From: an uncultured Candidatus Saccharibacteria bacterium
GTDB lineage: Bacteria; Patescibacteriota; Minisyncoccia; 2-02-FULL-40-12; GWA2-44-9
Direction: 5' to 3'
Assembly: GCA_964587505.1 (NCBI GenBank)
Contig: CAZPLD010000002.1
Span: 1-39,828, forward strand
Length of the DNA: 39,828 nucleotides
Shown: one piece after another, positions 10,729-38,334 of the stretch
Layout of the letters: each line of letters opens with the position of its first letter
Numbering within the stretch: the stretch's first letter is position 1
Made by a program: the position numbers and the translations under genes
Notes under the pieces: generated by a model
The model's input: the letters and a program-made list of their open reading frames with translations, nothing else
What the model was told of the DNA's origin: nothing
Databases searched by the model: none

Positions 10729-10742
10729 GGTGGGTTAATAAG

Positions 10743-10790
10743 ATATTACAAAAAAAGCACTTGAAAAGCAAACATAAATTATGGTATAGT
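10743..10790. promoter_or_regulatory. Back-to-back divergent sigma70-like promoters. Minus strand: TTGCTT-17-TAATAT for the 8-gene operon. Plus strand: TTGAAA-18-TGgTATAGT for the SDR gene.
   Basis: Read from the sequence. Minus-strand -10 is at 10743-10748 and -35 at 10766-10771. Plus-strand -35 is at 10761-10766 and the extended -10 at 10782-10790. The two -35 boxes abut. Both leave only very short leaders. Confidence 0.45.
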
Positions 10791-10799
10791 TTTTTCATC

Positions 10800-11962: not shown

Positions 11963-13321
11963 ATGATGGCTCCTGTGTGGTGGGAAAAACTCAAAAACGA
12001 AATACTGGATACCGATCTGTATACCCGCTCGGGAACGGAAGTCGGGGTTTCGAACGGAACTCTTAAATTAGAGGAAAGAGATGGAGATTATTTTACGGTT
12101 AAGGTTTCCGATGAAGACATACCCGAAGTATCCTATAGGGCATCCTCCGATTTGGTCACAAATTATCCCAAACTAAATCAGTTTGTTTTTGGAAAACTAC
12201 CCAAAAACTGGCTAATTGGTAACTATAAAAAGATATTCGTCGGCCATATCATAAACAAAGATATCCGGAGAAATGCTTCTTCGGGAGGAATTATTAGCGG
12301 AACTCAGCTTTATCTTTTAAAAAAAGGTGTAATTGAAGGGGCAATTACACTTCGAATGCGCTACGACAAGCCCTACCTAACAGAGCCGATCATAGCCAAG
12401 GATGAAGAGGACATAAGAGAAGGCGCCCAGAGCAAATATACCACAGCCCCGTTAAACCAGATTCTTGCTGAACTTCCGGGAAGTTATCAATCTCTTTCTT
12501 ATACCGGCTTGCCTGAACAAATAGCCTCAATAAGAAAGCTTCAAATACTCGGCCATCCCAGCGTAAAGCCAATACAATATATTTTGGGATTTTTTTATGG
12601 TGAGACCCTTGGATTCAGCGCGATAAAAAGTTTGTTGCGAGCTCATGGAGAAAAAAGTGTAGGCCAGATAAAATCACTCTCCTTCAGAGCTGGAGAATGG
12701 CCGGGACATCTTAGGGCGGAATTAAAAAATGGCAAGGTCATAAACGTTAAAAAATTCTACGCTAACTATCTAAGCCCGTCGCACATTACAAAATACTCTC
12801 TCTATCAAGTTGACTATACAGCTGAACTGGCAGATATTTCTTCTGGAGACGCCTGGGCACCTGTCTACGAAGAGCGGGGCAAGGGTTGGTCAGTAGTAAT
12901 TGCAAGAACACAGAAGGGGCTTGAACTCCTGGAAGAAATGATGGAAAACAAGATAATAAACCTTAAGGAAATATCCGAAAAAGAACTCATCAACATGCAT
13001 TCCCTTGGTCTTGATATCAAAAAAAGGGGCGCATTTATAAGAATCGAAAGGAGGCAAAAGAAAGGCCTGCCTGTTCCTGAATTTGGCTATAAACCGGTTA
13101 ATATTACAAAGTCAAGAAAACTTTTCGAATCATTCGTCGGATTTACCATATGGCTTTTTCATTTAAAAGTTATGGTCTGGATTTTGGAGAAAATGCCGGT
13201 CTCGATTATCGGACAATTATTTGTCTATACTCGAAGCATTTGGAAGAAATCAACAAAAACAGTTAAAAAAGAGGGGTTAGAAGGTTTAAAATTCGAAATT
13301 AAATCATTACCGGACTTATAA
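11963..13321 (+). CDS. FrhB/FdhB-like flavoprotein (coenzyme F420 hydrogenase/dehydrogenase beta-subunit family, the type found in polysaccharide loci)
   Basis: 452 aa. RRNASSGGIISG and the overall layout resemble the FrhB_FdhB N and C domains. The N-terminal segment looks like a 4Fe-4S ferredoxin motif that has lost all its cysteines (see findings). Confidence 0.55.
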   Translation: MMAPVWWEKLKNEILDTDLYTRSGTEVGVSNGTLKLEERDGDYFTVKVSDEDIPEVSYRASSDLVTNYPKLNQFVFGKLPKNWLIGNYKKIFVGHIINKDIRRNASSGGIISGTQLYLLKKGVIEGAITLRMRYDKPYLTEPIIAKDEEDIREGAQSKYTTAPLNQILAELPGSYQSLSYTGLPEQIASIRKLQILGHPSVKPIQYILGFFYGETLGFSAIKSLLRAHGEKSVGQIKSLSFRAGEWPGHLRAELKNGKVINVKKFYANYLSPSHITKYSLYQVDYTAELADISSGDAWAPVYEERGKGWSVVIARTQKGLELLEEMMENKIINLKEISEKELINMHSLGLDIKKRGAFIRIERRQKKGLPVPEFGYKPVNITKSRKLFESFVGFTIWLFHLKVMVWILEKMPVSIIGQLFVYTRSIWKKSTKTVKKEGLEGLKFEIKSLPDL

Positions 13322-16019: not shown

Positions 16020-17590
16020 GGAATACTCCGAACAGATACTTGGGATTTTATTTTATCAGTAAGATCTTCGTCATATCCCAGAACAGCGCTTATATTATAA
16101 GCGTCAAAAGCTTTTTTTAGATTTTTATCAGAAATTAGCTGTTCTATGGTTTTAGGGTCAAAATAAACCACATCGTGATCTATTTGATAATTTAAAGAGC
16201 GGACGGATACCGGATGAATACCAACCGCATATACTCCTCCAAGGTCATTCCAACCGCTTATTTTATTTTTTATGTTCAACACAATTTCTTCGTTAGAAGA
16301 CCTATAAACATCGTGTAGTTTCCATTTGTTGGCATAAGAAAGGTGGCTCACAAAAAGAATAAGGACAGTCGAACCGATAATCGTTTTCCTAAATGTTCCG
16401 GCGCTAATAATTTCAATCAAACGATAGAGCCCCAAACCGGTTAAGGTTGAAAAAATAAATACGGTTTCCATAAAATGATCCCAATTCCCCGTTTTGTTAT
16501 ATACCAGATAACCAATCCACAAAATCCACCACAATACAAAAAGTCCCAATATTTTTTTATTGAAACGATATAAACTGAACAAGCCCAACAACATTAATCC
16601 AAGAACAACCGGCCCCCCCATATTTGTCAAATTAATTGTCTCTTTAATATAAAATCTAAAAGAGTCAAAGTAGGCACCCAATCTTTCGGAGAAACTGACA
16701 TCATAGCCCCATTGAGCGGCAAATAAAACTTGCGTCCTGCCTAAACCCCGATCATACATTTCTTTTATAAAATTGTCCTTGTCAAAATAAAAAGTGTAAG
16801 GATCGCGAAAAAATTCACCTACTAGATCAAAGGATTGCTGTTCTATATTTGTGTAGTAGGCATTTGGCACGCCAATCCAAGAAACAGGCGTAAGAGTAAA
16901 CCCGAATAAAACAACAAATGGTATAAGAAAGATTAGGCTTCTTTTATAAGATTTATTTATAAAAAGATCGCACAAGAAAAACGGTACAAATGAAATTGCG
17001 AAAGCATTTCTGGAAAGAGCAGCTAAAGCAAAAAATATACTAGCCGCCAAAACCCTAATTTTTTCAGCTTGAAAAGGACCATTTTTAGATCCAAGATAAG
17101 ACCACAGGGCAAGGCCAAAAAATAAAATCCCCCATTCATAAAATCCGCCGTGTATAGCTCCTGTGGCCATAACTGGCATAAACGCGCCCGCAGTAGACGA
17201 CATAAAACCAACAATGGTCCCAAACAATCGCGCAGAAAGCAAAAAAATTAAAACATTAAAAAGAGCAAAAAGAATCGTTGACACGAGAAGGGGCAGAGCC
17301 GGTTTAAACCCAAAATATTTAAATATCTGGCCGTAAATTATTGGGGTCAGAGGATTGAAAATTCCTTTTTCTACTCCAAACCGATTAACATTTTCTGAAG
17401 AAAGAAGCGTGCCGATTGAGTTTTCGATCTTATATGTTCCGGCAGCTGAAAAATTTCTTGCTTCCATCAGATTTTGATAATCCGCTCCGGCAGAATAACC
17501 TTTTTTGTAGACCGGATAGTAGTATGCGGCAACTGAAACGAAAAAAATTATCAAAACCAACAGGACTTTGGTGTGTGATTTATTATACAT
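16016..17590 (-). CDS. GT-C-fold membrane glycosyltransferase (ArnT/PMT_2-like)
   Basis: 524 aa and polytopic. The first extracytoplasmic loop carries GADYQNLMEARNFSAAGTY, resembling the acidic loop-1 motif of ArnT/PMT-type enzymes. It is divergently paired with a GtrB-like GT2. Confidence 0.6.
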   Translation of the reverse strand: MYNKSHTKVLLVLIIFFVSVAAYYYPVYKKGYSAGADYQNLMEARNFSAAGTYKIENSIGTLLSSENVNRFGVEKGIFNPLTPIIYGQIFKYFGFKPALPLLVSTILFALFNVLIFLLSARLFGTIVGFMSSTAGAFMPVMATGAIHGGFYEWGILFFGLALWSYLGSKNGPFQAEKIRVLAASIFFALAALSRNAFAISFVPFFLCDLFINKSYKRSLIFLIPFVVLFGFTLTPVSWIGVPNAYYTNIEQQSFDLVGEFFRDPYTFYFDKDNFIKEMYDRGLGRTQVLFAAQWGYDVSFSERLGAYFDSFRFYIKETINLTNMGGPVVLGLMLLGLFSLYRFNKKILGLFVLWWILWIGYLVYNKTGNWDHFMETVFIFSTLTGLGLYRLIEIISAGTFRKTIIGSTVLILFVSHLSYANKWKLHDVYRSSNEEIVLNIKNKISGWNDLGGVYAVGIHPVSVRSLNYQIDHDVVYFDPKTIEQLISDKNLKKAFDAYNISAVLGYDEDLTDKIKSQVSVRSIP

Positions 17591-17653
17591 CTAAAGATTA
17601 ATCGTACTATAACTTACTTGAAAAGTAAACCAGAATATGACATAATATCTACA

Positions 17654-18523
17654 ATGAACAAATCAGTTGAGCTCTCAATAGTTGTGCCCGTGTATAATGA
17701 AGGTGAAACCGTTGCCTCTGTTTTGACTGATTTGAAAAAAGAATTAGATGGCAAAATAACTCATGAAATTATAGTGGTAAACGACGGCTCTACCGATAAC
17801 AGTTGCGCAATTCTTGAGACAATCCCCTACATAAAATTGGTTAATCACACAGTCAATAGTGGCTACGGCTCGGCTCTGAAAACAGGGATAAAAAACAGCC
17901 GATATAACTGGGTCTTAACTTTTGACAGCGACGGCTCCCACCCGTCTCACCAGATAATGGACCTGGTTAAGTTTTGCGATAGCCACGATTTGATTATCGG
18001 AGCAAGAACCGGCGAGCAATCTTATGATACTTTTTTCAGAAAAATAGGGCGAAAAATAGTCACAAAATTTGCCCAATACATAAGCGGAGTAGAAATTGAA
18101 GATATTAATTCAGGCTTTCGTATTTTTAAAAAAGAGCTGCCGCAAAAATTCTGGCCATTATTGCCGGACGGCTTCTCATTCAGTTCTACCAGCACCGTCG
18201 CTTCTCATGTGTCCCATTATCCGGTAAAATATGTTTCCATAAACGCAAACAAGAGAGCCGGCGGAAAATCCACGGTCCGACCAGCTAAAGACTTCGTGGG
18301 ATTCTTATCTTTAATAACAAAAATAGCAATTTATTTTAAACCGCTTAAGGTATTTATACCAATAAGCATATTCCTTTTCGTTTCTGCAATATTAGTTCTT
18401 TTAATTGGGTGGTTCGCTTTCGGAGGAGTTTTAGATATAACTTTTGCGATACTGATAATGGCGGCGATACAATCTCTGACCTTTGGTCTGATTGCCGAAA
18501 TGATAGTTAAAAGATTTTATTAA
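17654..18523 (+). CDS. GT2 polyprenyl-phosphate glycosyltransferase (GtrB/CsbB/ArnC-like) with two C-terminal TM helices
   Basis: LSIVVPVYNEG, VVNDGSTDNS, GYGSALKTG, the DXD region TFDSDGSHP, and C-terminal hydrophobic helices (PISIFLFVSAILVLLIGW; ILIMAAIQSLTFGLIAEMI). ATG at 17654 preferred over the ORF-track TTG at 17618. Confidence 0.8.
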   Translation: MNKSVELSIVVPVYNEGETVASVLTDLKKELDGKITHEIIVVNDGSTDNSCAILETIPYIKLVNHTVNSGYGSALKTGIKNSRYNWVLTFDSDGSHPSHQIMDLVKFCDSHDLIIGARTGEQSYDTFFRKIGRKIVTKFAQYISGVEIEDINSGFRIFKKELPQKFWPLLPDGFSFSSTSTVASHVSHYPVKYVSINANKRAGGKSTVRPAKDFVGFLSLITKIAIYFKPLKVFIPISIFLFVSAILVLLIGWFAFGGVLDITFAILIMAAIQSLTFGLIAEMIVKRFY

Positions 18524-19239
18524 TAAAACGCCTCGGTGCGTATCTTGGGTTCATTCACTCCGCTATCTAATATGGCCCTTCTCATGTCGGATACAAATTT
18601 TATGGGTCCGCATATAAAATAATCTTTATCCTCCAAACTCTTTAATTTGCTCTTTATGTTTTTTATGTCTATTCTATTGAATTCTTTTACGTGCTTGTCT
18701 TTTATTTTTTGCCTTGTTAAGTAATAAAACAATTTTATATTTTTATTATTTTCAAACAACTCATTTAACTCATCGAAAAAAGCCGTATCTTCTTTGGTTT
18801 TATTGCTATAAAAAAGATAGATTTTTTTGTCTTTTAACAAGTCGGCTTTCACATGAGTTCTAATAATGCTTAAAAACGGCGTAATACCGATGCCGGCCGC
18901 CAAAAAAACAAGCTCCCCGCCTTTTTTATCCGGATAGAAATAACCCATCGGTCCTTCCATGGTAATAACTGACCCGGTTTTCAGCTCATGCAGTGCCGTG
19001 GAAAACCTGCCAATTTTTTTTACCGTTATAGCCAAAAATTTATCACCGGGAATGCTGGAAATCGTATAGGCCTTGCCCTCGGGACCCGATTGGCCGTTTA
19101 GATAAATAATCACATATTGCCCTGGGATAAAAGAGAGTTTTCTATTTTTGACAAGATTAAATTTAAGAGTAACAACATTTTCGGTTTCTTTATTTTTAGA
19201 AGTCAGCACGCATTTAAATTTATGATTATTTGGCAGCAT
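18520..19239 (-). CDS. Ferredoxin-NAD(P)+ reductase-like FAD/NAD(P)-binding oxidoreductase (no Fe-S domain)
   Basis: FAD-binding GKAYTISS (RxYS-type), GPMGYF, the NAD-binding LVFLAAGIGITPFLS, and C-terminal FICGP. It is the last gene of the Fe-S/rSAM operon and overlaps iscU by 14 nt. Confidence 0.75.
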   Translation of the reverse strand: MLPNNHKFKCVLTSKNKETENVVTLKFNLVKNRKLSFIPGQYVIIYLNGQSGPEGKAYTISSIPGDKFLAITVKKIGRFSTALHELKTGSVITMEGPMGYFYPDKKGGELVFLAAGIGITPFLSIIRTHVKADLLKDKKIYLFYSNKTKEDTAFFDELNELFENNKNIKLFYYLTRQKIKDKHVKEFNRIDIKNIKSKLKSLEDKDYFICGPIKFVSDMRRAILDSGVNEPKIRTEAFY

Positions 19240-19693
19240 GTTTTTGTTTATTTAAGTAATCATTAATTGCCTCGCTCAAGGCTAAATGCCCAAGCACGGA
19301 ACAATGAAATTTCCTGTCAGGCAGGCCGCCTAGCCGTTCAATTATTTGTTCTGGATTTATTTTTAAAGCTTTTTCCAAATCCATTCCCCCTTCTTCTGTG
19401 ACCATTACAGAAAGCATGGATGTTGAGGCTATGGCCGACGCGCATCCAAAGGTTCGCCACTTGCACTCCTTAATTTTATTTGTTTTCTTGTCTACTTTGA
19501 TCCACATGTGCATCATATCCCCGCAAGCCGGACTGCCGGTAGCGCCAAACCCGTCAGCTTCATACTTGCTTTCATCTAATAATAAGTTTCTTGGATTAAA
19601 AAAATGGTCCCTGACTGTTTCACTGTACACCCAAGCATCACCGCCACAAGTATTCTCCAAAAAAACATCTCCATCTTTTGTTTTTGTGCTCAT
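19226..19693 (-). CDS. iscU: U-type Fe-S cluster scaffold (IscU / NifU N-terminal domain)
   Basis: YSETVRDHFFNPRN, GSPACGDMM, FGCASAIASTSM and LPDRKFHCSVL. All three conserved cysteines and the LPPVK-like region are present. Confidence 0.9.
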   Translation of the reverse strand: MSTKTKDGDVFLENTCGGDAWVYSETVRDHFFNPRNLLLDESKYEADGFGATGSPACGDMMHMWIKVDKKTNKIKECKWRTFGCASAIASTSMLSVMVTEEGGMDLEKALKINPEQIIERLGGLPDRKFHCSVLGHLALSEAINDYLNKQKHAAK

Positions 19694-19694
19694 A

Positions 19695-20864
19695 TTATTT
19701 TACAGAAGAAATTTTTCTTAATCTTTTAACTACTGCGGGGAGGATTTTTAAAACATAGTCAAGTTTTTCTTTGTTCGTATCTCTGCCCAAAGTTATTCTG
19801 ATACTCCCCTGAGCTAACTCCGTCGGAGTGCCAATGGCATATAATACATACGAGGGAGTCAGATCAGTAGAAGAACACGCCGAGCCAGTCGAGCAAAATA
19901 TACCATACCTATCAAGCATTAAAAGAAGCGATTCGCCCTCAACCCCCCTTACTGAAATGTTTATATTATTGGGTAATCTTTTCTGGGCATGGCCGTTTAG
20001 ATTTACGCCCTCAATTAACTCTAAAACATTCTTAATAAAATAATCCCTCAGTTGTATTTGCCTTCTATTTTCTCTATGCTTAATTTTTTCAGCCAACTTT
20101 AATGCCTCAAACAAGCCGACAATTAACGGAACATTTTCTGTTCCCGCTCTCAAGCCCATTTCCTGACTACCTCCCAAAATCTGCGGTTCTAAATTTATAT
20201 CCCTTTTTACAAATAAACACCCGACACCTTTGGGCCCATAAATTTTAGAGCCGTTAAAAGTCATCAAATCAACGCCTATTTTATTAACATCCAATGTCAA
20301 CGCTCCGGCAGCTTGGCAAGCATCCGTGTGAAACAATGGGAACCGCTTTTCTCCTCTAAATTTTTTGATAATCTTTGAAATTTCAGCAATCTGCTGGATG
20401 GTTCCTATTTCGTTATTCGCATACTGTATAGAAACGAGGGTCGTATCTTTCTTTAAACATTTTTTTAATTCGGCTAATTTCACCAATCCTGAATCATCAA
20501 CATTCACATAGGTAACCCTGAAGCCCTCTCTCTTTAGTTTTTTTGCGGCTTCTAAAATAGCTTTGTGTTCTATTTTAGACACAATAATGTGTTTGCCAAA
20601 TTTAACATTCGCATGAGCTGCGCCAACAATGGCCAGGTTGTCGGATTCAGTCCCGGAACCCGTAAACATTACTTCTTCCTTTTTTGACCCAATCACATTC
20701 GCAATGCCGGTTCTTGCCGTATCAATTGCCTGTTTTGTTATTCTTCCGGCTCGGTGAAGCGAGGAAGGATTACCAAAGAAACGGGAAAAAAATGGGAGCA
20801 TTTTGCCCAGAACTTTTCTGTCTACATAGGTAGTCGAGGCATAATCGAGATAAATGTTCTTCAT
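19695..20864 (-). CDS. iscS: Cysteine desulfurase (NifS/IscS type, PLP-dependent)
   Basis: 389 aa. FTGSGTESDN, HTDACQAAG, the PLP-lysine region NGSKIYGPKGVG, and the active-site loop STGSACSS. Confidence 0.9.
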   Translation of the reverse strand: MKNIYLDYASTTYVDRKVLGKMLPFFSRFFGNPSSLHRAGRITKQAIDTARTGIANVIGSKKEEVMFTGSGTESDNLAIVGAAHANVKFGKHIIVSKIEHKAILEAAKKLKREGFRVTYVNVDDSGLVKLAELKKCLKKDTTLVSIQYANNEIGTIQQIAEISKIIKKFRGEKRFPLFHTDACQAAGALTLDVNKIGVDLMTFNGSKIYGPKGVGCLFVKRDINLEPQILGGSQEMGLRAGTENVPLIVGLFEALKLAEKIKHRENRRQIQLRDYFIKNVLELIEGVNLNGHAQKRLPNNINISVRGVEGESLLLMLDRYGIFCSTGSACSSTDLTPSYVLYAIGTPTELAQGSIRITLGRDTNKEKLDYVLKILPAVVKRLRKISSVK

Positions 20865-21080
20865 TTATTTATTCTCTTCGATCGTAATGGCCTTAACGGG
20901 ACAGCTCGTTTCGGCCATTTTTAAATCATCGGATAACTTCTTATTGGCCTTTTTATCAATCAAACTTTCCTCTTTATGAATAACTTCAATGCCGTCTTCT
21001 TTCAAAACAAAAACCTCGGGACATATACTGGCACAGAGGCCGCATTTTATACATTTATCTTTATCTATTGAAATTTTCAT
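20865..21080 (-). CDS. Small [4Fe-4S] ferredoxin
   Basis: 71 aa. CIKCGLCASICPE plus the distal CPVKAI matches the single-cluster CxxCxxC...CP pattern. Its stop abuts the iscS start with no gap. Confidence 0.8.
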   Translation of the reverse strand: MKISIDKDKCIKCGLCASICPEVFVLKEDGIEVIHKEESLIDKKANKKLSDDLKMAETSCPVKAITIEENK

Positions 21081-21085
21081 TTTAA

Positions 21086-22507
21086 TTAAATTTTTAACAG
21101 TTGAAACGCGGCTTTTGTTTTCCGAAAAAATTCGCCTATGGATTTAAGCTGTGAAATTTTTTTAAAAGCGTAGCTTGGCCTAAAATAGAAAGAACGGTAA
21201 GCGCTCCCTAACAAGGATAATAACTCAACTCGCGATAAGTTTTTTTCCCATACCGGGGGAATAAATCCAGGTTTAGGATCTCTGGCAAAATCACGCCAAA
21301 CATCATTGGTCAATACTCTTTCTTCTTGAGCCATTTTATACAGATCTGTCGCCGGAAAGGGAGTTGTAATTGTTATGTGAACATAATCTGGATTAATTTT
21401 TTTCATAAATTTTACGGTCTGGATAATGTCCTCCTTAGTTTCCGTAGGAGAACCCAACATAAAATAACCGGCTGTTTGAATGCCGACTTCTTTTGTTGTC
21501 TTGAAAGCTTCTTCGACCTGCTTAAGAGTAATTCCCTTCCTTAAAACATTTAATATTCTTTGCGTTCCGGCCTCGACTCCGTAATGAATTCTCTGACAAT
21601 TTGCCCGTTTAAGCGCCTCTAAAACCTCCCTGTCTACCGTATTTACTCTTGTCCTAATATCCCAAACAATTGAAAGACCACGCTTTTCTACCTCATTACA
21701 AATATCTAAAACCCGCTGGCGATCAACTCCGAAAGTGTCGTCATAAATAAAAATTTCTTGTATCCCCATTTTAGCGCATTCCTCCATTTCATCAACAACA
21801 TTTTTAGCTGAGCGGGCACGAAAAATCTTACCTAATTGCGGCCGATCACAAAACAAACACTTGAAAGGACAGCCGCGACTGGTAAACATGGTGGTTACAG
21901 GCCTGCGCGGAGAAAGAACAGAAAAATATTTCTCATAGGGCGTAAGATAACGGACAGGAAAAGGCAGATTATCAAGATTTTCTATAAAATCAGCTTGGCC
22001 GGTATTAATAATGGTTCCCCCGTCTTTAAAAACCAGACCCCTTACGTTTTTTAGTTCTTTTGGATTATCCATATTCGCCAATAGTTGTTTAATTGCCCCT
22101 TCAGCTTCGCCTAAAACCAAAAAGTCGATCTCCTCATTGCTTATTGTCTCGTTGGGGAAAATCATGACATGGGGTCCGCCCAAAATAATTTTTGTTTTTG
22201 GATTTACCTCTTTCACCACTTTCGCTGTTTTCATTACGTCAATCAACGTAAAAGTCATGGCTGTAATGCCGACAATGTCCGGTTTTCTTCTACTAACTTC
22301 TTCTTTAAGCTGGCGATAGCCTATCTCCTCAACCTGGCAATCAAGAATTTCAATATTATACGGCGTTGTCTTCTTCACGTAAGCTGCAACATACATCAAC
22401 CCCAAAGGAGGGAGGAAATCCAATCCTTCTTCCAACTCTTTGGGCTGAACACTGGCAATGGTGTTTTCAATCGGCGGATTAATTAAAAGAATTTTTTTCA
22501 TTTTCAA
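21086..22507 (-). CDS. Cobalamin-binding-domain (class B) radical SAM enzyme
   Basis: 473 aa. The N-terminal Rossmann-like KKILLINPP..DIVGITAMT..IILGGPHV resembles a B12-binding domain. The radical SAM cluster motif is SRGCPFKCLFC. Confidence 0.85.
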   Translation of the reverse strand: MKMKKILLINPPIENTIASVQPKELEEGLDFLPPLGLMYVAAYVKKTTPYNIEILDCQVEEIGYRQLKEEVSRRKPDIVGITAMTFTLIDVMKTAKVVKEVNPKTKIILGGPHVMIFPNETISNEEIDFLVLGEAEGAIKQLLANMDNPKELKNVRGLVFKDGGTIINTGQADFIENLDNLPFPVRYLTPYEKYFSVLSPRRPVTTMFTSRGCPFKCLFCDRPQLGKIFRARSAKNVVDEMEECAKMGIQEIFIYDDTFGVDRQRVLDICNEVEKRGLSIVWDIRTRVNTVDREVLEALKRANCQRIHYGVEAGTQRILNVLRKGITLKQVEEAFKTTKEVGIQTAGYFMLGSPTETKEDIIQTVKFMKKINPDYVHITITTPFPATDLYKMAQEERVLTNDVWRDFARDPKPGFIPPVWEKNLSRVELLSLLGSAYRSFYFRPSYAFKKISQLKSIGEFFRKTKAAFQLLKI

Positions 22508-23169
22508 TTTTCAAATTTTTTTACAAAATGCTTGTCTAAAAATTTGTTTAAAAATCTTTTCTTGATAAAAAGCGGGGTGAGATAATAAATTTTAACCAGA
22601 AGTCTTCTAAACATTATGTCGGATTCATGGATACTTCTAAAAAGAGGGTTGGGCTGAAACTTGTTATAACCCACCAAGTCATCAACTTTATATTTGCGGG
22701 GCATTTCTACTGGTTCTCTTTGTTTGTGGCCAAGAAGGACATAGGCAATGGGATCAAAATGGGAAGGGATGAAGAAAATTTTTCTCAACTGTTTTTTGGT
22801 CGGCAAATGGCAAAGCCAGCAGCTTCCCAGACCATAATAAGTAGCGGCCAATACCAGATTTTCAATTCCAGCAGCCGCGCTTTGGATAAAATCACAGTAT
22901 TCTGTATCCTCTGTCCGATTATTATAAAGCACTAAAATGCCAATTGGCGCGTTTTTTATAATAATGGAACCTCCGTGATCAACCAGTTTTTGTTTGATTT
23001 CCTCGCTGTCCACCACAATAAACTGCCAACCCTGGAGATTGCAGGCTGAAGGAGCCTTAACGGCTGTTTCAATTATCTTGGCAATCAAATCTTTAGCCAC
23101 CGGTTCGGGAGTGAAATTTCTGATGCTCCGCCTTGAATTAATAACATTTAAAAAATCTGTTTGGTTCAT
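22504..23169 (-). CDS. Nitroreductase-family flavoprotein with basic C-terminal extension
   Basis: INSRRSIRNF, APSACNLQGWQF, and the usual roughly 170-aa fold, followed by an extra Lys/Phe-rich tail of about 50 aa. There is a 4-nt ATGA-type overlap with the downstream rSAM gene. Confidence 0.75.
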   Translation of the reverse strand: MNQTDFLNVINSRRSIRNFTPEPVAKDLIAKIIETAVKAPSACNLQGWQFIVVDSEEIKQKLVDHGGSIIIKNAPIGILVLYNNRTEDTEYCDFIQSAAAGIENLVLAATYYGLGSCWLCHLPTKKQLRKIFFIPSHFDPIAYVLLGHKQREPVEMPRKYKVDDLVGYNKFQPNPLFRSIHESDIMFRRLLVKIYYLTPLFIKKRFLNKFLDKHFVKKFEN

Positions 23170-23219
23170 TTTTTAGTTTCTCTTCACATATATAATGACG
23201 TATTATATAAAAAATTGAT

Positions 23220-23248
23220 TTGAGAAGCAAGTGAAAATATGGTATAAT
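23220..23248 (+). promoter_or_regulatory. Sigma70-like promoter TTGAGA-17-TGgTATAAT for the UPF0104 membrane protein gene
   Basis: -35 at 23220-23225, TG at 23240-23241, -10 TATAAT at 23243-23248. The ATG is at 23271. Confidence 0.5.
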
Positions 23249-23270
23249 AGTCAAAAGATTATACAACCAA

Positions 23271-24188
23271 ATGAAACTTATTCAAAAAATTCCCATCCGA
23301 AAAATTTTAATTCTTGCGTCAGTAAGCGTTTTAATAATATTCATCATCTTCAAAACCTTAGTAAGCATGGAGGATTTTTATCGTGTCATTCGGGGTATCA
23401 GTTGGTTTTATTTTTTTCTATCTTTTGCCACCATAATTCCCGTTGTTATTATCAATGTGGCCAAGTGGTATTTAGTTCTTCGGGCCGCTGATTATAATGT
23501 TTCTTTTCAAAAAATATTTAAAATTGTCATAACCAGCACCTCTTTGGGAATATTGCCTGGCCGGCTCGGCGACTTTGCCAGAAGCTATCCTCTTCGCCAT
23601 ATTATCCCCCTGCCCCAAGCTATTGGCACTATAGTTTTAGAAAAAATCCTAGACATATCGGTTTTGCTCGCTTTTTCCGGAATAGGTCTTTTTGTTTTAG
23701 GATACCAGACATTTGCCGTTTTTGAGTTATTGCTAGTAGCGGGAGCTTTCCCCATTTTAAAAATAACAGGTTCTGCCAGCAAAAAAATACTGCCAAAGAA
23801 CCATTTAACCGATAAGCTTTATGATGCTTTCTCGGTTTTAAACAAAGTTAAGGCCAGAAAAAAAAATTTTTCGATGGCCATAATAAGTTCGTGCGCCAAC
23901 GGAATGTTGTCAATGTTCCAAATATATTGGCTTTTTAAAGCCGTGGGGGCAGTGGTTCCCTTGTTTGCCATATTTGCATTTCACCCTCTCGGAGTATTTG
24001 CTGGACTCATCCCTATAACTCTTGCGGGGGCAGGCACTCGTGACTCAATGATTATTTATTTATTCGGCGACTTTGCTGCTCCGGGACAATCTTTGGCGGT
24101 TGGTATTCTTTACGCCATGCAAAGTTATTGGATACTATCTTTGTTGGGATTACCCCTTCTTTACTACTTTTTCAAACAGAACGATTAA
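23271..24188 (+). CDS. Flippase-like membrane protein (UPF0104 / LPG_synthase_TM-type domain)
   Basis: 305 aa with about 8 TM helices. PGRLGDFARSY resembles the conserved R-x-G-E/D-x2-R loop of the MprF-type flippase domain family. Confidence 0.6.
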   Translation: MKLIQKIPIRKILILASVSVLIIFIIFKTLVSMEDFYRVIRGISWFYFFLSFATIIPVVIINVAKWYLVLRAADYNVSFQKIFKIVITSTSLGILPGRLGDFARSYPLRHIIPLPQAIGTIVLEKILDISVLLAFSGIGLFVLGYQTFAVFELLLVAGAFPILKITGSASKKILPKNHLTDKLYDAFSVLNKVKARKKNFSMAIISSCANGMLSMFQIYWLFKAVGAVVPLFAIFAFHPLGVFAGLIPITLAGAGTRDSMIIYLFGDFAAPGQSLAVGILYAMQSYWILSLLGLPLLYYFFKQND

Positions 24189-24196
24189 ATACAGGG

Positions 24197-26560
24197 CTAA
24201 AGAATTTTATACTTAAATAAAATTTTGTGGTTTCCGGCAGGAACTTGAATCGCCTGAAACACATAATTAGCTCGATAAATCTTAACTTCTTTACCGTCAA
24301 TAAAAGCTCGCCAACCAGGCAGAAAAGAATTGGAGAAAACCAGCCAGGAATTATTTTTATTCTCCACTTCTAATAAAATCTCGTCCGGCTTGTACGACTC
24401 AAGGCGGACAACCCCCCTGCCGCCCGATAAATTTTCTTGGCAATCCCCGCACTCTATTAAAGTTTCTGCCTTGAAATTTTTTATTTCCAAAAGTTTCCGC
24501 ATCACGGCATCATCTGATAGATTTTCATTTAAATATAAGGTAGATTTAGCAAGGTAAATTTTGGGCAGAACATCAGGATTTTCATATACATAAAGAGGTA
24601 TCTGGGTATCGATAACGCTTGAGTCCAATCTCTTGATAAACGGCTTGCCCAACGGCAGGGATGAGAGAATATATTTAACATTCATCATTGAAAACAGTTT
24701 TATTTTGGATTCAAATAACTTTCTTTTTTCATCCAAGGTCAACTTTTGAGTCGCAAACTGACTGTTAAAATCGGAAAAGAATTCCTGTCTCTTGGTTAAA
24801 AAAGCCTCGTGGCCATTTAAAGTTTCTATATTGTAATACATGAACTCATCCGTACGGAAAGTGGCTATTTCAAATTTTAAAAGTTTTTCCGGATTTTTGT
24901 ATTCCAACCCCATTTTTTTATATGACTCAATTCCGATATTAAATGATAACGCCCGATATTGATCGTCTTTGTGGTTTATTAAAAATTGGATTACCGGCGT
25001 CGGATTCAATACAGAAGCAGGGACAAAGGAATAATACCGATGCCAGATGAAAAAAGATGAAAAATAAACAAGAACAACGGCTAAAACTGAAAATGCCGCA
25101 GTTGAAACTTTATTTTTTAACAGCAAGAAAATAATCAGCCCGGTTGATACAAGCGTAATTACGGCCAGCCAAATCTCAACATTTGAAAAAGAAAATTGAT
25201 AAAACCACGAATTTAAAAGCTCTTTTACTTTGCCTATGTAATAAGCCGGCTCGCGCTGAAGGGTGTGGGCGTAGCCAAAACGCATAAAAACTTTAAATCC
25301 GACCCTAATTAAGGTCTCAAATGCAAAATAATATATTATATTTATCGCAACAACTGCCAAACCAAAAACAATCAGAAACTTTTTATAAAAACCGGCAATT
25401 CTGGAAAAAAACTTTAATCCCCGACTTTCTCTTAAGGCGTCCAAACCAAAACCAGCCAAAATAGCCATCGCAAATGTGGTTAAAAAAAGAAATTTACCGG
25501 GTCCGCGAAAAGAATTAAAAACCGGAACTTTGGTCAATATGTAAAAGACCGGGGAATATATTATGGCCGTACCCAAAGTTAGAACCGTCATCCATTGGAA
25601 AAATCTGACAAAATAACTTTCTCTATTGACTTTCCAAGCCAAAACAATAAGAAGCAGAGGCAAAATACCAAGATAAAAATGAGTAAATTCAGTGTTTATA
25701 AAAGGCAATATGATAAACGGAGAAACAAAGTGAACCAAGTCAAAAACATTGTAATAGTCCTTATTAAATGAATCCTGGTAGGACAGCCCGCCGTTTCTCC
25801 AGCTTAAACTGTAAATTGCATAGTCGGCTTTTATAACCGGCAGAACGATAACCACGCTCAATAAAATAATGGCCGCACAGATAATGGTATTTTTATATTT
25901 TAGAAGTTGAAATCTGTTCTTTTGGAAGTCCAAAAACGCAGCAAATACTACCAGGGCCGTTGCCAGATAAAGCGTGGTTTGAGTCAGACCAAAGACCCAA
26001 TTCGGAGCAAGGACCAGTGCGGCCAGAATGGCATACCAGAATTTGTGCCCGCCTTCGCTGATCTTAATTGTCAAAAAAAATAAAAACGGAACCCAGGCAA
26101 GAAAAAGGCCAATAGTTTCAAGGCCGCCCCACTGAATGTTCCATTGATTAAAAATCCAAACAAACGAAGCAAAGACAGCAGATAAGGCGCTGATTTTTAA
26201 CTTCCTGGACAACAGATAGAACCCGTACCATTGGCCCGCAAAACTCAACGCGATAACCCAATAGTAAGCGCTTATCGGCTTGAGAAATTTATAGAAAAAA
26301 AGTGTGATTGGATGGAGCATATCCATTTGGGAAAGATAGGGGGCAACACCGCTGAAATAGAGCGGGTTGATACGCCAGCTCCCGCTTCTTAAGGCCTCGC
26401 CAAACCAAAAATGCAGTGGCAGATCTTCGGCTGTACTATGAGCAACACCAAAAGCCAACTTACCGCCAAAAAGGACGGGGTAGAAAAAAACAGTTACGGC
26501 TACAAAAGGAAGCCACCACAAAACATAAGGAATCCTGAATATTTTACCAAACCTATTCAT
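24197..26560 (-). CDS. Very large polytopic membrane protein with C-terminal beta-rich domain; GT-C-like, YfhO-like in size and architecture
   Basis: 787 aa. TM helices cover about 520 aa, followed by a roughly 260-aa soluble C-terminus. An acidic ED pair lies in loop 1 (HSTAEDLPLHFWFGE). It overlaps the upstream Zn-ribbon methyltransferase by 4 nt. Confidence 0.5.
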   Translation of the reverse strand: MNRFGKIFRIPYVLWWLPFVAVTVFFYPVLFGGKLAFGVAHSTAEDLPLHFWFGEALRSGSWRINPLYFSGVAPYLSQMDMLHPITLFFYKFLKPISAYYWVIALSFAGQWYGFYLLSRKLKISALSAVFASFVWIFNQWNIQWGGLETIGLFLAWVPFLFFLTIKISEGGHKFWYAILAALVLAPNWVFGLTQTTLYLATALVVFAAFLDFQKNRFQLLKYKNTIICAAIILLSVVIVLPVIKADYAIYSLSWRNGGLSYQDSFNKDYYNVFDLVHFVSPFIILPFINTEFTHFYLGILPLLLIVLAWKVNRESYFVRFFQWMTVLTLGTAIIYSPVFYILTKVPVFNSFRGPGKFLFLTTFAMAILAGFGLDALRESRGLKFFSRIAGFYKKFLIVFGLAVVAINIIYYFAFETLIRVGFKVFMRFGYAHTLQREPAYYIGKVKELLNSWFYQFSFSNVEIWLAVITLVSTGLIIFLLLKNKVSTAAFSVLAVVLVYFSSFFIWHRYYSFVPASVLNPTPVIQFLINHKDDQYRALSFNIGIESYKKMGLEYKNPEKLLKFEIATFRTDEFMYYNIETLNGHEAFLTKRQEFFSDFNSQFATQKLTLDEKRKLFESKIKLFSMMNVKYILSSLPLGKPFIKRLDSSVIDTQIPLYVYENPDVLPKIYLAKSTLYLNENLSDDAVMRKLLEIKNFKAETLIECGDCQENLSGGRGVVRLESYKPDEILLEVENKNNSWLVFSNSFLPGWRAFIDGKEVKIYRANYVFQAIQVPAGNHKILFKYKIL

Positions 26561-27551: not shown

Positions 27552-29216
27552 TTAATCCCTGGGACGAGGCGCGGGGTATGTGACGGTTTTTTTCATTTCA
27601 GGCATTGCCCTTAACACTTCAATCTTGAAACCCTTAATAAAACTCTTTAGGCCCGTTAGAGCATTGCCAAATTTAATGGGATAAATATAGTATTTTAGAG
27701 TAATCACTTTAATGATGTAATAAATAGCCAAATACAGTCTGTTCGGTTCAAACCTTTTTGTTAAAACATTGAGTATAAATTCAACCAAAAAGTTGCAAGC
27801 CCAATTATATAACCGGCCCAACAATCTGATCGGGCCACAAAATATTGACAGGTGATTTTGACTCAAAAAATCGTCAAGCTTTTGCATTTTTCGCGAAAAC
27901 CATGTTGCCATATTCCCGATAAAAAGCGCCAACCCGCCAAGATATAAAATATTTTTCTGCTGGTCTTTTTCTTCTTCAGTAAAACAGCTAAGCGGCGAAC
28001 GCTCCATCAACGACTCGCTCATTTTATCAGGGTCCATCTTAAAATATCCTTTATCTTCGCAATATTTCCCGATTTCCGTTCCAGGATAGGGCATGAGAAT
28101 GGAAAAGCTTGAAAATTTAACTCCGGAAGCGATGTCCAGACGCACTGCGTCTTTATCGTCTTCTATGGTAGCGTCAGGAACGCCCAAGATCATGTTGTTA
28201 AAGATACCAATGCCATAGTGCTCCGCCATTCTAAATTTGTCGATAACGTCTTGATTGGTAAATTTTTTCTTAATGACCCTTTTGCGAACTTCTATATTGG
28301 CGTGGTCTACGGCAACATTCAACGATACACAGCCGGCTTCTTTAAGAAGTTTGAGCATGTCCTCGGTTATTGAATCCACTCTGACAAGCGCGTTAAACGG
28401 TATTCCTACCTTCCTAGGATAAATTTTAACAAACTCCTGGAGCCATCTGTCCACATGGAGAACAAAAAGGTCGTCTTCAAATTTAATAAATTCAACCGGC
28501 CATTTTGATTTTACTTGGAGAATTTCTTCACATACCCGTTCCGGCGAATGCCTTCGCTCATATTTGCCGGACTGCCTGCCTGTTTTTGTATCAAGCACTT
28601 GAATAACACCCATGGCTTTTTCTTCTCTGTACATTTTCTTTAGCACCGGCTCAAAGCAATAAGTGCACGGAAACGGACAACCTCGGGAAGTAATAAATGT
28701 TTTTAACGGGAAACCGCCAATAGGAGTATTCGCAAAAAGCAGGTCTCGGTCGGGAAAGGGCAATGTATCCAAGTCACCAATTAAGTCCCGCTTCTTATTG
28801 ACCCCGCCGGTCTTGGTACCGATATTTAAGATATCTTGTATGTCTTTCCCGGCTTCAAGCCGGTTCAAGAGTTCCGCAAAAGCCCCTTCGCCTTCCCCCA
28901 CGGCGATTGCGTCAATGGGTTGATAGTCAATGCATTGAGAATAATATGTGGGATGCGAACCGCCCATTATTGTAAAAACGTGCGGAAATCTTTCCCTGAT
29001 CTGCCTATTTAAGTTGAAATATCCTTGATGCTCTCCGGTAACAGCGCTGTAAGCAATGACTCCCGGCTTATAATCAGCAATCTTCTGAAACACATCGCCC
29101 CCTTCAATAACCGCAAGGTCCATTTCATGGCCCTCGTTTTTGCCGGCAGCAGACAAGTAACAAATTCCCATCGGATCAATAAAGTCGCTTCTTTGGATAA
29201 GCCACAAAACCCTCAT
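27552..29216 (-). CDS. Cobalamin-binding-domain (class B) radical SAM enzyme
   Basis: 554 aa. N-terminal MRVLWLI..FIDPMGICYLSAA..VIAYSAVTG..TIMGGSHP. Cluster motif SRGCPFPCTYC. The C-terminal region is hydrophobic or amphipathic. Confidence 0.85.
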   Translation of the reverse strand: MRVLWLIQRSDFIDPMGICYLSAAGKNEGHEMDLAVIEGGDVFQKIADYKPGVIAYSAVTGEHQGYFNLNRQIRERFPHVFTIMGGSHPTYYSQCIDYQPIDAIAVGEGEGAFAELLNRLEAGKDIQDILNIGTKTGGVNKKRDLIGDLDTLPFPDRDLLFANTPIGGFPLKTFITSRGCPFPCTYCFEPVLKKMYREEKAMGVIQVLDTKTGRQSGKYERRHSPERVCEEILQVKSKWPVEFIKFEDDLFVLHVDRWLQEFVKIYPRKVGIPFNALVRVDSITEDMLKLLKEAGCVSLNVAVDHANIEVRKRVIKKKFTNQDVIDKFRMAEHYGIGIFNNMILGVPDATIEDDKDAVRLDIASGVKFSSFSILMPYPGTEIGKYCEDKGYFKMDPDKMSESLMERSPLSCFTEEEKDQQKNILYLGGLALFIGNMATWFSRKMQKLDDFLSQNHLSIFCGPIRLLGRLYNWACNFLVEFILNVLTKRFEPNRLYLAIYYIIKVITLKYYIYPIKFGNALTGLKSFIKGFKIEVLRAMPEMKKTVTYPAPRPRD

Positions 29217-38307: not shown

Positions 38308-38334
38308 ATCAAAAGACCGTCTATTTAAAGACGG
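38308..38334 (-). terminator. Candidate intrinsic terminator after the Rieske oxygenase pair
   Basis: The minus strand reads CCGTCT-TTAAAT-AGACGG followed by TCTTTTG. The 6-bp stem has the stop codon in its loop. Confidence 0.4.

Follow-up and report, generated by a model that had tools for sequence, protein, structure and literature searches.

Six genes of a Patescibacteria contig that appear to join a glycan-pathway pair to an Fe-S assembly module

Gene layout and transcription signals

The window considered here is the whole 39,828-nucleotide stretch of DNA that was analysed. Six ORFs of its minus strand occupy positions 18520-23169 with gaps of -14 to +5 nt, and the compact cluster described in the initial annotation is thus present. 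The first gene encodes a nitroreductase-fold FMN flavoprotein (NTR; 22504-23169, 221 aa) and the second a B12-dependent class B radical SAM protein (rSAM1; 21086-22507, 473 aa from TTG). They are followed by the genes of a single-cluster [4Fe-4S] ferredoxin (Fdx; 20865-21080, 71 aa), a NifS/IscS-type (type I) cysteine desulfurase similar to MisS (NifS; 19695-20864, 389 aa), a single-domain IscU/NifU_N scaffold similar to MisU (NifU; 19226-19693, 155 aa) and an FNR-like FAD/NAD(P)H reductase without an Fe-S domain (18520-19239, 239 aa). NTR overlaps rSAM1 by 4 nt, or lies 2 nt from it if the latter starts with ATG. The next gaps are 5 nt (rSAM1 to Fdx), 0 nt (Fdx to NifS) and 1 nt (NifS to NifU), and the 3' end of the scaffold gene overlaps the reductase start by 14 nt. 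The true start of rSAM1 is probably the ATG at 22501, which gives about 470 aa and is favoured over TTG because the homologues are 470 aa long.

An AT-rich intergenic region (23170-23270), the probable promoter region, separates NTR from the divergent plus-strand LPG_synthase_TM gene (23271-24188). The two top sigma-70-like matches within 17500-24300 both fall around this region. The plus-strand match (23220-23248, 11/12) lies inside it, and in the one on the minus strand (23285-23258, 10/12) the -35 element falls just within the start of that LPG_synthase_TM ORF. The total number of such matches in 17500-24300 is no higher than in shuffled sequences (25 vs 18.7 +/- 4.7). A palindrome, TATATAAT-N5-ATTATATA, occupies 23189-23209 of the divergent region, and no Rfam elements were found in 23170-23270. 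Terminator-like sites were not found between the six genes; together with the promoter-like matches, this makes a single transcript for all six plausible.

Encoded proteins

The six family assignments made earlier are all correct, and all cofactor motifs are intact. NTR matches the Pfam nitroreductase family (PF00881, 101.9 bits). Its homologues form about 115 clusters, nearly all of 213-221 aa, and the final 30 residues are almost invariant. The basic tail of roughly 50 aa noticed earlier is real (52 aa, 12 K/R vs 4 D/E), but it is predicted to fold as helix-Pro-helix and would therefore not be disordered. In the AF2 model (pLDDT 92.6), the C-terminal helices span residues 182-197 and 200-218, while the nearest solved folds are minimal nitroreductases of about 170 aa without a C-terminal extension. 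The C-terminus is accordingly predicted to be a conserved two-helix extension.

rSAM1 combines a B12-binding domain (PF02310, 79.8 bits) with a Radical_SAM domain (PF04055, 94.6 bits) and an intact C213xxxC217xxC220 motif. Its N-terminal B12-binding domain and CxxxCxxC core are those of class B rSAMs such as HpnJ, BchE, TokK and OxsB. Unlike these enzymes, it falls under every equivalog cutoff: the two highest NCBIfam scores, 244 bits for HpnJ and 220 bits for BchE, stay far below the respective cutoffs. Among solved structures, the best matches are weak (AprD4, 9ccb, TokK, OxsB). The 470-aa family is unusually conserved, with 61-90 % identity over more than 120 clusters. Its members come from Patescibacteria, DPANN and a few further phyla, in association with GT2 and LPG_synthase_TM genes.

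Fdx matches Fer4_15 (57.1 bits) and Fer4_13 (54.8 bits), has the cluster cysteines C10/C13/C16/C60 and an additional C20, and has the P. furiosus and T. maritima monocluster ferredoxins as its nearest stand-alone solved relatives. NifS matches Aminotran_5 (258 bits) and retains K207 and the loop STGSAC330SS. It scores 472 bits against the NCBIfam NifS model, under the equivalog cutoff of 531, and passes the IscS-subfamily model PRK02948 (310.7 vs a cutoff of 304). NifU matches NifU_N (130.9 bits) and retains C57-G-D59, C84 and H130-C131. The FNR-like protein carries FAD_binding_6 (46.9 bits) and NAD_binding_1 (56.1 bits) domains with intact KAYT, GIGITP, CGP and C-terminal FY motifs. It matched no characterised equivalog of NCBIfam (Fpr, 30.7 bits vs a cutoff of 390) and belongs to a small subfamily of about 65 clusters at 40 % identity or more. 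Its nearest solved relatives, flavohaemoglobin and cytochrome b5 reductase domains, score only about 63 bits.

Conservation of the Fe-S module

With lineages dereplicated at 80 % FNR identity, NifS-NifU-FNR was found in about 21 of them, many loci being short contigs, the lineages related and the events not independent. In 21 of 22 evaluable lineages, FNR is immediately preceded by NifU, as an overlapping or a fused reading frame, and the overlap measures 11-38 nt in nearly all loci. Natural NifU::FNR fusions are represented by P0177 and P0241 (379 aa; NCBI MEK9170029.1; at least six contigs from three sources) and occur also in lineages L118 and L119. This overlap and fusion suggest that the scaffold is a client of the reductase no less than the rSAM is. 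In about 18 of the 21 lineages that could be evaluated, fusion loci included, a homologous single-cluster ferredoxin adjoins the module. It is placed either co-directionally before NifS (Group A) or convergently after FNR (Group B); no adjacent ferredoxin was found in L101, L115 and L156. About 18 lineages other than those with rSAM1 possess the module. Judged from this gene conservation, Fdx-NifS-NifU-FNR appears to be an autonomous conserved module with NifS-NifU-FNR as its core.

The module sits inside glycan loci in the window, L088, L112, L001, L022/L154 and L157. Outside them, it is surrounded by genes of a Mur ligase, deoxyhypusine synthase and RNase J (L008/L110), of AMMECR1, RNase J, EF-P and MnmA (L151-153), of Pol IV and peptidase U32 (L156) or of RF1, PrmC and ribosomal protein S2 (L115). 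The recruitment of the Fe-S system into a glycan locus, suggested in the initial annotation, evidently took place in the sublineage of the window.

Association with radical SAM genes

About half of the lineages that could be evaluated carry an rSAM gene no more than about 600 nt from the module (the window, L088, L112, L001, L022-type loci, L107, L101, L102, L115 and L157). These rSAMs belong to at least six families and are found upstream of NifS, downstream of FNR or convergent after Fdx. None was found within 3-10 kb of the module in L008/L110, L104, L111, L113 and L156. The proposed tie between the module and rSAMs is supported by this repeated adjacency, which involves many rSAM families.

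The adjacency could be a coincidence, if a housekeeping NifS-NifU-FNR(-Fdx) operon without any special relation to rSAMs had been placed in an extensive glycan locus with many rSAMs. Such loci are large and frequent in these genomes, and some hold 4-6 rSAMs in 20 kb, so that an insertion anywhere there falls near an rSAM. It had been proposed that finding the block beside unrelated genes would indicate chance adjacency, and it does stand amid unrelated housekeeping genes in the L008, L151 and L156 types of loci. Such a criterion is, however, too blunt, since recurrent adjacency to rSAMs of different families in different positions argues against pure chance. Adjacency also occurs outside glycan loci, with a Tes/TrsS-like rSAM in L115 and in L124, where RlmN is directly upstream of an FNR homologue of 38-41 % identity and NifS/NifU are absent. 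L092 and L093, which form one sublineage, dropped NifS/NifU and kept Fdx-FNR within an rSAM cluster. Around NifS genes without the FNR module, the rSAM detector used for this control found one rSAM in 1.28 Mb, although it was trained on the module loci and is biased. Chance placement is thus considered unlikely.

The glycan-pathway pair and the six-gene order in relatives

The initial annotation regarded all six genes as one dedicated operon that makes this B12-rSAM self-sufficient, with NTR as a part of the support chain. The tight spacing agrees with this, as does L088, where the exact order is kept at 74-87 % identity despite rearranged surrounding glycan genes. L112 retains five of the six genes (rSAM1-Fdx-NifS-NifU-FNR), with NTR separated from rSAM1. 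However, the exact order recurs in L088 only, among the closest relatives, and in L001 four genes stand between rSAM1 and Fdx and NTR is further upstream, apart from rSAM1.

Orthologues of rSAM1 (61-64 % identity; L003, L005 and L159) and of NTR (51-55 % identity; L159 and L160) also occur without Fe-S genes nearby. In L003 and L159, rSAM1 adjoins GT2 and LPG_synthase_TM genes; the gene order of L159 is that of L001 minus the four-gene Fe-S block. The regular partner of NTR is a methyltransferase gene, not Fe-S genes, and this pair is found in the glycan loci of L159 and L160. On these gene neighbourhoods, rSAM1 would be a glycan/lipid-tailoring enzyme, and NTR and rSAM1 a Patescibacteria glycan-pathway unit separable from the Fe-S module. 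A single dedicated operon, already weakened by these synteny data and by the module-bearing lineages that lack rSAM1, is held to be quite improbable. The logic of electron and Fe-S supply, with conserved Fdx, NifS, NifU and FNR, stands; the six genes would nevertheless be two joined units, a glycan-pathway pair and an Fe-S module, and not one unit evolved around this B12-rSAM.

Comparison with known Fe-S systems

The NifS-NifU pair is best read as MIS-type. MIS comprises NifS/IscU-like pairs of non-diazotrophs, MisS and MisU (Garcia et al. 2022, as cited in PMC13066941 and PMC12192291). These reviews, one of them dated 2026, present MIS as a two-component system with unknown electron donors (PMC13066941, PMC12192291). 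What the window shares with it is a type-I cysteine desulfurase gene next to that of a single-domain IscU-type scaffold; chaperones, an A-type carrier, IscR and nif genes were not found in the 39.8-kb window. Unlike MIS, it adds a scaffold-overlapping FNR-like reductase, fused in relatives, and a single-cluster [4Fe-4S] ferredoxin.

In the ISC system, electrons are supplied by Fdx and an NADPH-dependent reductase (PMC13066941). The genes of the window would fit the same order, from NAD(P)H through a flavoprotein and ferredoxin to the desulfurase and scaffold, where persulfide sulfur is reduced (PMC13066941). The ferredoxin of the window is, however, a [4Fe-4S] monocluster type and not the [2Fe-2S] adrenodoxin type of ISC; its reductase has no Fpr/FdxR equivalog match and is encoded in the cluster, coupled to the scaffold gene; and HscBA, IscA and IscR are absent from the window.

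The three-domain NifU of the NIF type has a central permanent [2Fe-2S] ferredoxin-like domain. The window resembles it in linking the scaffold to a redox-active module, here an FNR-like protein overlapped or fused with NifU_N. It differs in the single-domain NifU, the flavoprotein partner and the lack of nitrogenase context.

For the apicoplast, a single Fd/FNR pair is regarded as the electron source of two rSAMs, LipA and MiaB, and also of the SUF pathway (PMC8844926). In this pair and in FldA/Fpr of E. coli, rSAM clusters are believed to receive electrons from an NAD(P)H-driven FNR by way of a small carrier, which is comparable to the proposal for the window. Both systems are encoded apart from their clients, whereas the window Fdx/FNR genes are linked to Fe-S assembly genes and often to rSAM genes, and the carrier is of the [4Fe-4S] type.

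Proposed electron supply

The somewhat favoured explanation is a lineage-specific fusion of the glycan-tailoring pair with a MIS-type Fe-S system, which would have its own NAD(P)H-FNR-ferredoxin supply for both cluster assembly and rSAM reduction. NTR and the B12-rSAM would carry out tailoring steps in an envelope-glycan pathway of Patescibacteria. NifS, a PLP enzyme, would convert cysteine sulfur into persulfide, and NifU would be the site of cluster assembly. The FNR-like flavoprotein, as the putative electron-input enzyme of the module, would oxidise NAD(P)H and pass single electrons to NifS/NifU directly or via Fdx, the presumed electron carrier. These electrons would reduce persulfide sulfur to sulfide and serve reductive cluster coupling. 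The Fdx/FNR pair might also reduce the [4Fe-4S]2+ clusters of the neighbouring rSAMs and, possibly, cob(II)alamin. This electron path is proposed from gene linkage and by analogy with ISC.

Alternatively, the FNR-like protein might be a flavin or ferric reductase that gives Fe2+ to NifU or reduces a scaffold-bound intermediate, with Fdx only a client or carrier; ferric-reductase-type Pfam matches (NAD_binding_6, 44.7 bits; FAD_binding_8, 22.3 bits), weak NCBIfam hits to flavin reductases of the Fre/LuxG type (about 51 bits), NOX-like FR-type domains among the solved relatives, the fusions that put the reductase on the scaffold itself and the three lineages without an adjacent ferredoxin agree with this, but the usual presence of Fdx beside the module, and the Fdx-FNR pair without NifU in L092 and L093, which is hard to explain if FNR acts on NifU alone, make it very unlikely.

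Against the favoured fusion of a tailoring pair with a self-supplied Fe-S system counts that electrons would have to move thermodynamically uphill from NAD(P)H to a low-potential [4Fe-4S] ferredoxin. The lack of a ferredoxin-reductase equivalog match for the FNR-like protein, whose nearest solved relatives are flavohaemoglobin, cytochrome b5 reductase and NOX-type domains, counts against the same explanation, as do the lineages with no rSAM within 3-10 kb of the module and the three with no ferredoxin beside it.

The Rieske centres suggested earlier as electron acceptors were not confirmed in the window, where the sole trace is a sub-threshold KshA_C match at 38325-38870. With four rSAMs, an FrhB-like protein and the ferredoxin, the window has genes for at least six Fe-S proteins. 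A supply module placed within this locus would tie the supply to the chief demand.

A composite gene block

The six minus-strand genes at 18520-23169 combine glycan tailoring genes with a portable module that probably supplies Fe-S clusters and electrons. In gene order, the ORF calls are a nitroreductase-family flavoprotein (NTR, 22504-23169), the class B radical SAM enzyme rSAM1 (21086-22507), a ferredoxin (Fdx, 20865-21080), NifS (19695-20864), NifU (19226-19693) and an FNR-like protein (18520-19239). They are separated by -4 (or +2), +5, 0, +1 and -14 nt. The tight spacing of six consecutive genes described in the initial annotation is thus reproduced, with gaps of -14 to +5 nt, and all the families it named agree with Pfam and NCBIfam. 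Cofactor and catalytic motifs are complete in all block proteins checked (rSAM, Fdx, NifS, NifU and FNR). The further proposal, that the six genes are a self-sufficient support operon for the rSAM, holds for the Fe-S and electron supply, which forms a portable module; synteny speaks against a dedicated six-gene machine.

The genes have the layout of an operon, being co-directional with minimal gaps and no intergenic terminator-like site found inside the block. The best two sigma-70-like matches of the surrounding 6.8 kb lie at the 101-nt region upstream of the block, one on each strand. Promoter-like sites (25 vs 18.7 ± 4.7 in shuffles) and terminator-like sites (7 vs 7.0) do not exceed chance, and neither scan is statistically informative. 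Co-transcription is plausible, given the small gaps, the lack of intergenic terminator-like sites and the sigma-70-like matches upstream, whose counts are not above those in shuffles. An Rfam scan of 17000-24500 gave no riboswitch and no other RNA element.

A palindrome is present in the divergent promoter region at 23189-23209, with perfect arms of 8 nt and a 5-nt spacer (TATATAAT-gacgt-ATTATATA). It could be an operator or a chance occurrence in AT-rich DNA. At the other end of the block, the stop codons of the FNR gene and of the convergent GT2 gene (17618-18523, plus strand) overlap by 4 nt at 18520-18523, which leaves no space for a terminator on either strand.

Recurrence of the gene order and separation of its two halves

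Related loci were collected by scans anchored on NifS in species genomes and on the FNR-like protein in metagenomes. Dereplication at 80 % FNR identity left about 23 lineages with an FNR at least 41 % identical to that of the window, 22 of them evaluable for NifU.

The six-gene order recurs only in the closest relatives, and its two halves part further out. The exact order NTR-rSAM1-Fdx-NifS-NifU-FNR is found only in locus L088, a 49-kb contig whose proteins are 74-87 % identical and in which the flanking glycan genes are rearranged. In L112, a methyltransferase (MT) and a membrane protein are inserted (NTR-MT-membrane protein-rSAM1-Fdx-NifS-NifU-FNR). In L001 and L090 the order is NTR-MT-deacetylase-rSAM-rSAM1-SPASM-MT-rSAM-GIY-YIG-Fdx-NifS-NifU-FNR, and L159 has the gene order of L001 without the four-gene block. 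The GIY-YIG endonuclease gene of L001 (14591-14851) stands between the last B12-rSAM and the ferredoxin, where the module joins the glycan cluster, and may have been left there by mobility or rearrangement.

By gene context, NTR and rSAM1 belong to the glycan pathway, since their orthologues occur in loci without the Fe-S module. Orthologues of rSAM1 (61-64 % identity) stand beside GT2 and LPG_synthase_TM genes in L003 and alone by an ATP synthase operon in L005, and no Fe-S genes were found within 10 kb of either. Orthologues of NTR (51-55 % identity), followed by a methyltransferase, are present in the module-free glycan loci L159 and L160; the steady partner of NTR is this methyltransferase and not the Fe-S module.

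The other half is found among housekeeping genes. It stands with Mur ligase, deoxyhypusine synthase, RNase J-like, LOG and MgtC genes in L008/L110; with spermidine synthase, AMMECR1, RNase J, EF-P and MnmA in L151-153; with Pol IV, an amidase and peptidase U32 in L156; and with RF1, PrmC and ribosomal protein S2 in L115. The initial annotation had itself named placement beside unrelated genes in relatives as the finding that would speak against a single operon, and these four settings show it. Annotation of the six-gene 'operon' as one pathway is to be avoided.

Within the module, the coupling of NifU to FNR is conserved. NifU is directly upstream of FNR in 21 of the 22 evaluable lineages, and the two ORFs overlap by 11-38 nt almost everywhere. 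One Patescibacteria sublineage carries a 379-aa NifU_N::FNR fusion (proteins P0177 and P0241), and fused ORFs are also present in L118 and L119. The fusion of the P0241 type corresponds to NCBI MEK9170029.1; at least six contigs, drawn from NCBI, Logan and ENA, carry it. In the fusion loci (L157/L158, 10001-11140), a B12-rSAM and NifS precede the fusion and a convergent ferredoxin follows it. A single-cluster ferredoxin adjoins the module in about 18 lineages: co-directional ahead of NifS in Group A (lineages like that of the window), immediately past FNR and convergent with it in Group B, whose lineages are more distant. FNR homologues below 38 % identity have no NifU neighbour.

The Fe-S pair compared with known systems

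NifS is a type-I cysteine desulfurase (Aminotran_5, 258 bits; IscS subfamily PRK02948, 310.7 vs cutoff 304) that retains the PLP lysine K207 and the catalytic loop STGSAC330SS. NifU, starting 1 nt from NifS, is a single-domain protein of 155 aa (NifU_N, 130.9 bits) with the ligands C57/D59, C84 and H130-C131. Both are under the cutoff of the NCBIfam equivalogs (NifS 472 vs 531; NifU_clost 126 vs 188). Among all window ORFs of 120 aa and longer, Pfam detected neither chaperones nor an A-type carrier, a regulator or nif genes, a result that applies to these 39.8 kb.

In desulfurase type, scaffold and accompanying genes, the pair agrees with the minimal Fe-S system (MIS, MisS/MisU) as far as sequence can tell: a type-I desulfurase adjoins a single-domain IscU-type scaffold, and the window has neither chaperones nor carriers. 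Unlike an ISC system, the window has no IscR, IscA, HscB, HscA or [2Fe-2S] ferredoxin, the Fdx of the block being of the [4Fe-4S] Fer4_13/15 type. The NIF system differs in having a three-domain NifU of about 290 aa in a nitrogenase context; the scaffold of the block consists of NifU_N only, scores 121.5 against a cutoff of 273 for NifU_proper, and has no nif genes with it in the window.

Proposed electron supply to the pair

The FNR-like protein has the two-domain fold of its superfamily (FAD_binding_6, 46.9 bits; NAD_binding_1, 56.1 bits). Its motifs are K56AYT for RxY(S/T), G116IGITP for GxGxxP and C210GP, with a C-terminal FY; the Lys of the first motif in the window stands in place of Arg, which is present in Group B relatives. 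The subfamily is small: a set of 5.8 billion proteins contains about 65 clusters with an identity of 40 % or more. The ferredoxin, of 71 aa, has the ligand pattern CxxCxxC...CP (C10, C13, C16, C60-P) and resembles the monocluster [4Fe-4S] ferredoxins of the P. furiosus and T. maritima type (Fer4_15, 57.1; Fer4_13, 54.8; solved matches 2z8q, 1siz and 1rof).

In the ISC system, a ferredoxin reduced by an NADPH-dependent reductase gives the electrons for persulfide reduction on IscS/IscU, and the electron donors of MIS were described as unknown in a 2026 review (PMC13066941). The apicoplast Fd/FNR pair has been proposed as the source of electrons for LipA, MiaB and the SUF pathway (PMC8844926). 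The best-supported reading of the present analysis is a MIS-type Fe-S biogenesis pair that would have acquired an electron input of its own. We infer all the electron-transfer steps of the module as follows. NAD(P)H would give a hydride to the FNR-like flavoprotein, which would hand single electrons on to NifS/NifU, directly or via the [4Fe-4S] ferredoxin; the same Fdx/FNR pair would reduce rSAM clusters, as proposed for the apicoplast pair. The NifU/FNR overlap and the fusion argue for FNR action at the scaffold. Retention of Fdx-FNR with rSAM genes even where NifSU is missing argues that the pair also reduces rSAM clusters.

A more specific form of this reading, to which we would give somewhat less than an even chance, is that the NifS-NifU-FNR core is a self-reducing variant of MIS, in which an FNR docked on the scaffold or fused to it feeds in electrons from NAD(P)H, the pair also activating neighbouring rSAMs. 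Such a variant would be defined by overlapping NifU and FNR genes, NifU::FNR fusions that occur in nature, and a [4Fe-4S] ferredoxin that goes with them. If true, it identifies the electron donor of MIS, at least for Patescibacteria. The gene-linked, sometimes fused reductase and its ferredoxin make a concrete, testable four-protein set for MIS electron supply.

The alternative that the FNR-like protein is a flavin or ferric reductase acting on the iron side is a live one, since no ferredoxin-reductase equivalog is matched (Fpr PRK10926, 30.7 vs 390; PetH, 21 vs 600) and among solved structures the protein is closest to flavohaemoglobin, cytochrome b5 reductase and NOX-type domains, with scores of no more than about 63 bits. 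The top equivalog match is the flavohaemoprotein reductase domain, at 120 vs a cutoff of 432.

The families that make up the MIS-type pair and its electron input are ordinary; what is without an earlier description that we could find is the NifU-FNR coupling and the recurring placement on the side of rSAM genes. No account of an FNR-linked or FNR-fused MIS scaffold was found in the literature, and a search on Fe-S assembly, rSAM or ferredoxin in Patescibacteria/CPR gave no relevant paper.

Radical SAM genes beside the module

In roughly half of the evaluable lineages, an rSAM gene is no more than about 600 nt away from the module, with varying families and positions. It is rSAM1 in the window, L088 and L112. 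L001 and L157 have a paralogous B12-rSAM of 472-476 aa, which in L092 stands some 970 nt away from the Fdx-FNR pair. In L022/L154 and L107, a SPASM rSAM of 341 aa follows the ferredoxin convergently, rSAMs of 357 and 411 aa stand beside the module in L101 and L102, respectively, and a Tes/TrsS-like rSAM begins 6 nt after FNR in the non-glycan locus L115. As a control, a single rSAM was found in 1.28 Mb around NifS genes without the FNR module, a comparison made with a local profile that was built from these loci and is biased to their rSAM types, so that the enrichment beside the module is to be read qualitatively only.

The B12-rSAM adjoining NifS in L157 was considered as an rSAM1 orthologue and rejected, scoring 200 bits vs 700-970 for orthologues. 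The rSAM of L115 (8393-14437 for the stretch with the module and its neighbours) matches TrsS at 366 bits and Tes at 339 bits, both under cutoff, and carries Zn_ribbon_HMPTM. It is followed by DUF4395, an ICMT/PEMT-like methyltransferase, a second DUF4395 and Lgt; this may be an operon for the modification of membrane lipids that the module supplies. In L151-L153 (2942-9613), AMMECR1 is directly upstream of NifS, with a 338-aa rSAM and a LigB-family gene 4.5 kb upstream, together possibly a set of the AmmeMemoRadiSam type close to the Fe-S module.

In L092 and L093, NifS-NifU is lost and Fdx-FNR is kept adjacent within an rSAM-rich cluster; the FNR similarity tree places this reduced form inside the NifSU-linked lineages. 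In L124 (8859-10672) and in L120, an FNR homologue with 38-41 % identity to that of the window and no NifS/NifU is paired with the housekeeping rSAM RlmN (354.7 bits vs cutoff 290), which lies 3 nt upstream. The module is a candidate physiological activator of rSAM enzymes in Patescibacteria, the glycan loci of which encode several uncharacterised B12-dependent and SPASM rSAMs. To know their likely physiological reductant and cluster donor is the practical prerequisite for their activation in vitro. In very small genomes, cofactor supply may sit beside its main consumers.

The glycan locus, rSAM1 and the nitroreductase

A glycan-biosynthesis locus takes up the whole window. Besides many SAM methyltransferases, it has genes for a Bac_transf priming transferase, GT2 and GT4 transferases, a Wzx-like flippase, YfhO and an AsnB-like protein. 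All its genes have their nearest relatives in Patescibacteria MAGs, and SecA, MurB and ribosomal genes flank related loci. The Fe-S proteins encoded in the window number at least six. Apart from those of the block, there are a second (27552-29216) and a third B12-rSAM (36824-38233), a SPASM rSAM (30731-31948) and an FrhB/FdhB-like Fe-S flavoprotein (11963-13321). The last is kept in the same glycan loci (L088, 4550-5902; L095, 2485-3837) and is likely another client of the Fe-S/ferredoxin module. Its gene is divergent from NTR in L088 and near FNR in L095. Rieske centres, which the initial annotation had listed among the possible clients, were not confirmed in the window, where the only match was a sub-threshold one to KshA_C (the Rieske-oxygenase C-terminal domain). 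It falls in one of two small minus-strand ORFs (38325-38870 and 39269-39634), the other having no match.

By its domains and motif, rSAM1 is assigned to the class B (B12-dependent) rSAMs. The cluster motif CxxxCxxC is C213-PFK-C217-LF-C220 (PF04055, 94.6 bits), and binding of cobalamin is predicted from the N-terminal domain at residues 32-142 (PF02310, 79.8 bits vs cutoff 32.1). All named NCBIfam equivalogs are far under cutoff (HpnJ, 244 vs 578; BchE, 220 vs 481). The family comprises more than 120 clusters of 470 aa with 61-90 % identity, unusually conserved for a tailoring enzyme, and ranges over Patescibacteria, Nanoarchaeota/DPANN, Coatesbacteria and one deltaproteobacterium. Because the homologues are uniformly 470 aa long, the start is probably the ATG at 22501 and not the TTG at 22507. 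Exact-sequence look-ups of the window rSAM and NifS gave no match; the called start codon of the rSAM probably differs. The usual neighbours of the family are a GT2 and a flippase-like LPG_synthase_TM gene, and such genes flank the block in the window (17618-18523 and 23271-24188).

The fold of NTR is confirmed (PF00881, 101.9 bits), and the AlphaFold2 model from a 35-sequence alignment (pLDDT 92.6, pTM 0.88) matches 3e10, 4dn2 and 3koq (TMt 0.80-0.84). The basic tail of about 50 aa noted in the initial annotation is indeed present as a C-terminal extension of 52 residues (170-221; 22504-22659) with a net charge of +8. The family shares it: nearly all of about 115 clusters have lengths of 213-221 aa, after which there is a sharp fall to 168-aa proteins without it. 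Among close orthologues the extension is the most conserved part of NTR, the last 30 residues being nearly invariant though the proteins are only 72-77 % identical overall. It is modelled as helix-Pro-helix (182-197 and 200-218), is partly amphipathic, and would fit membrane or partner binding. The nearest solved folds are minimal nitroreductases of anaerobes of about 170 aa, aligned over the core only, and no solved nitroreductase in the fold search covers the extension.

A role of NTR as BluB (5,6-dimethylbenzimidazole synthase) or as a cobalamin-processing enzyme was set aside: TIGR02476 gives 74.5 vs a cutoff of 150 and the fold search only generic minimal nitroreductases, so that such a role stays speculation.

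Elsewhere in the window, a sugar C-methyltransferase ORF (9472-10728, minus strand) and an SDR ORF (10614-11525, plus strand) overlap head-to-head by 115 nt. As Pfam matches the SDR only from residue 70 on, the gene probably starts further downstream than called.
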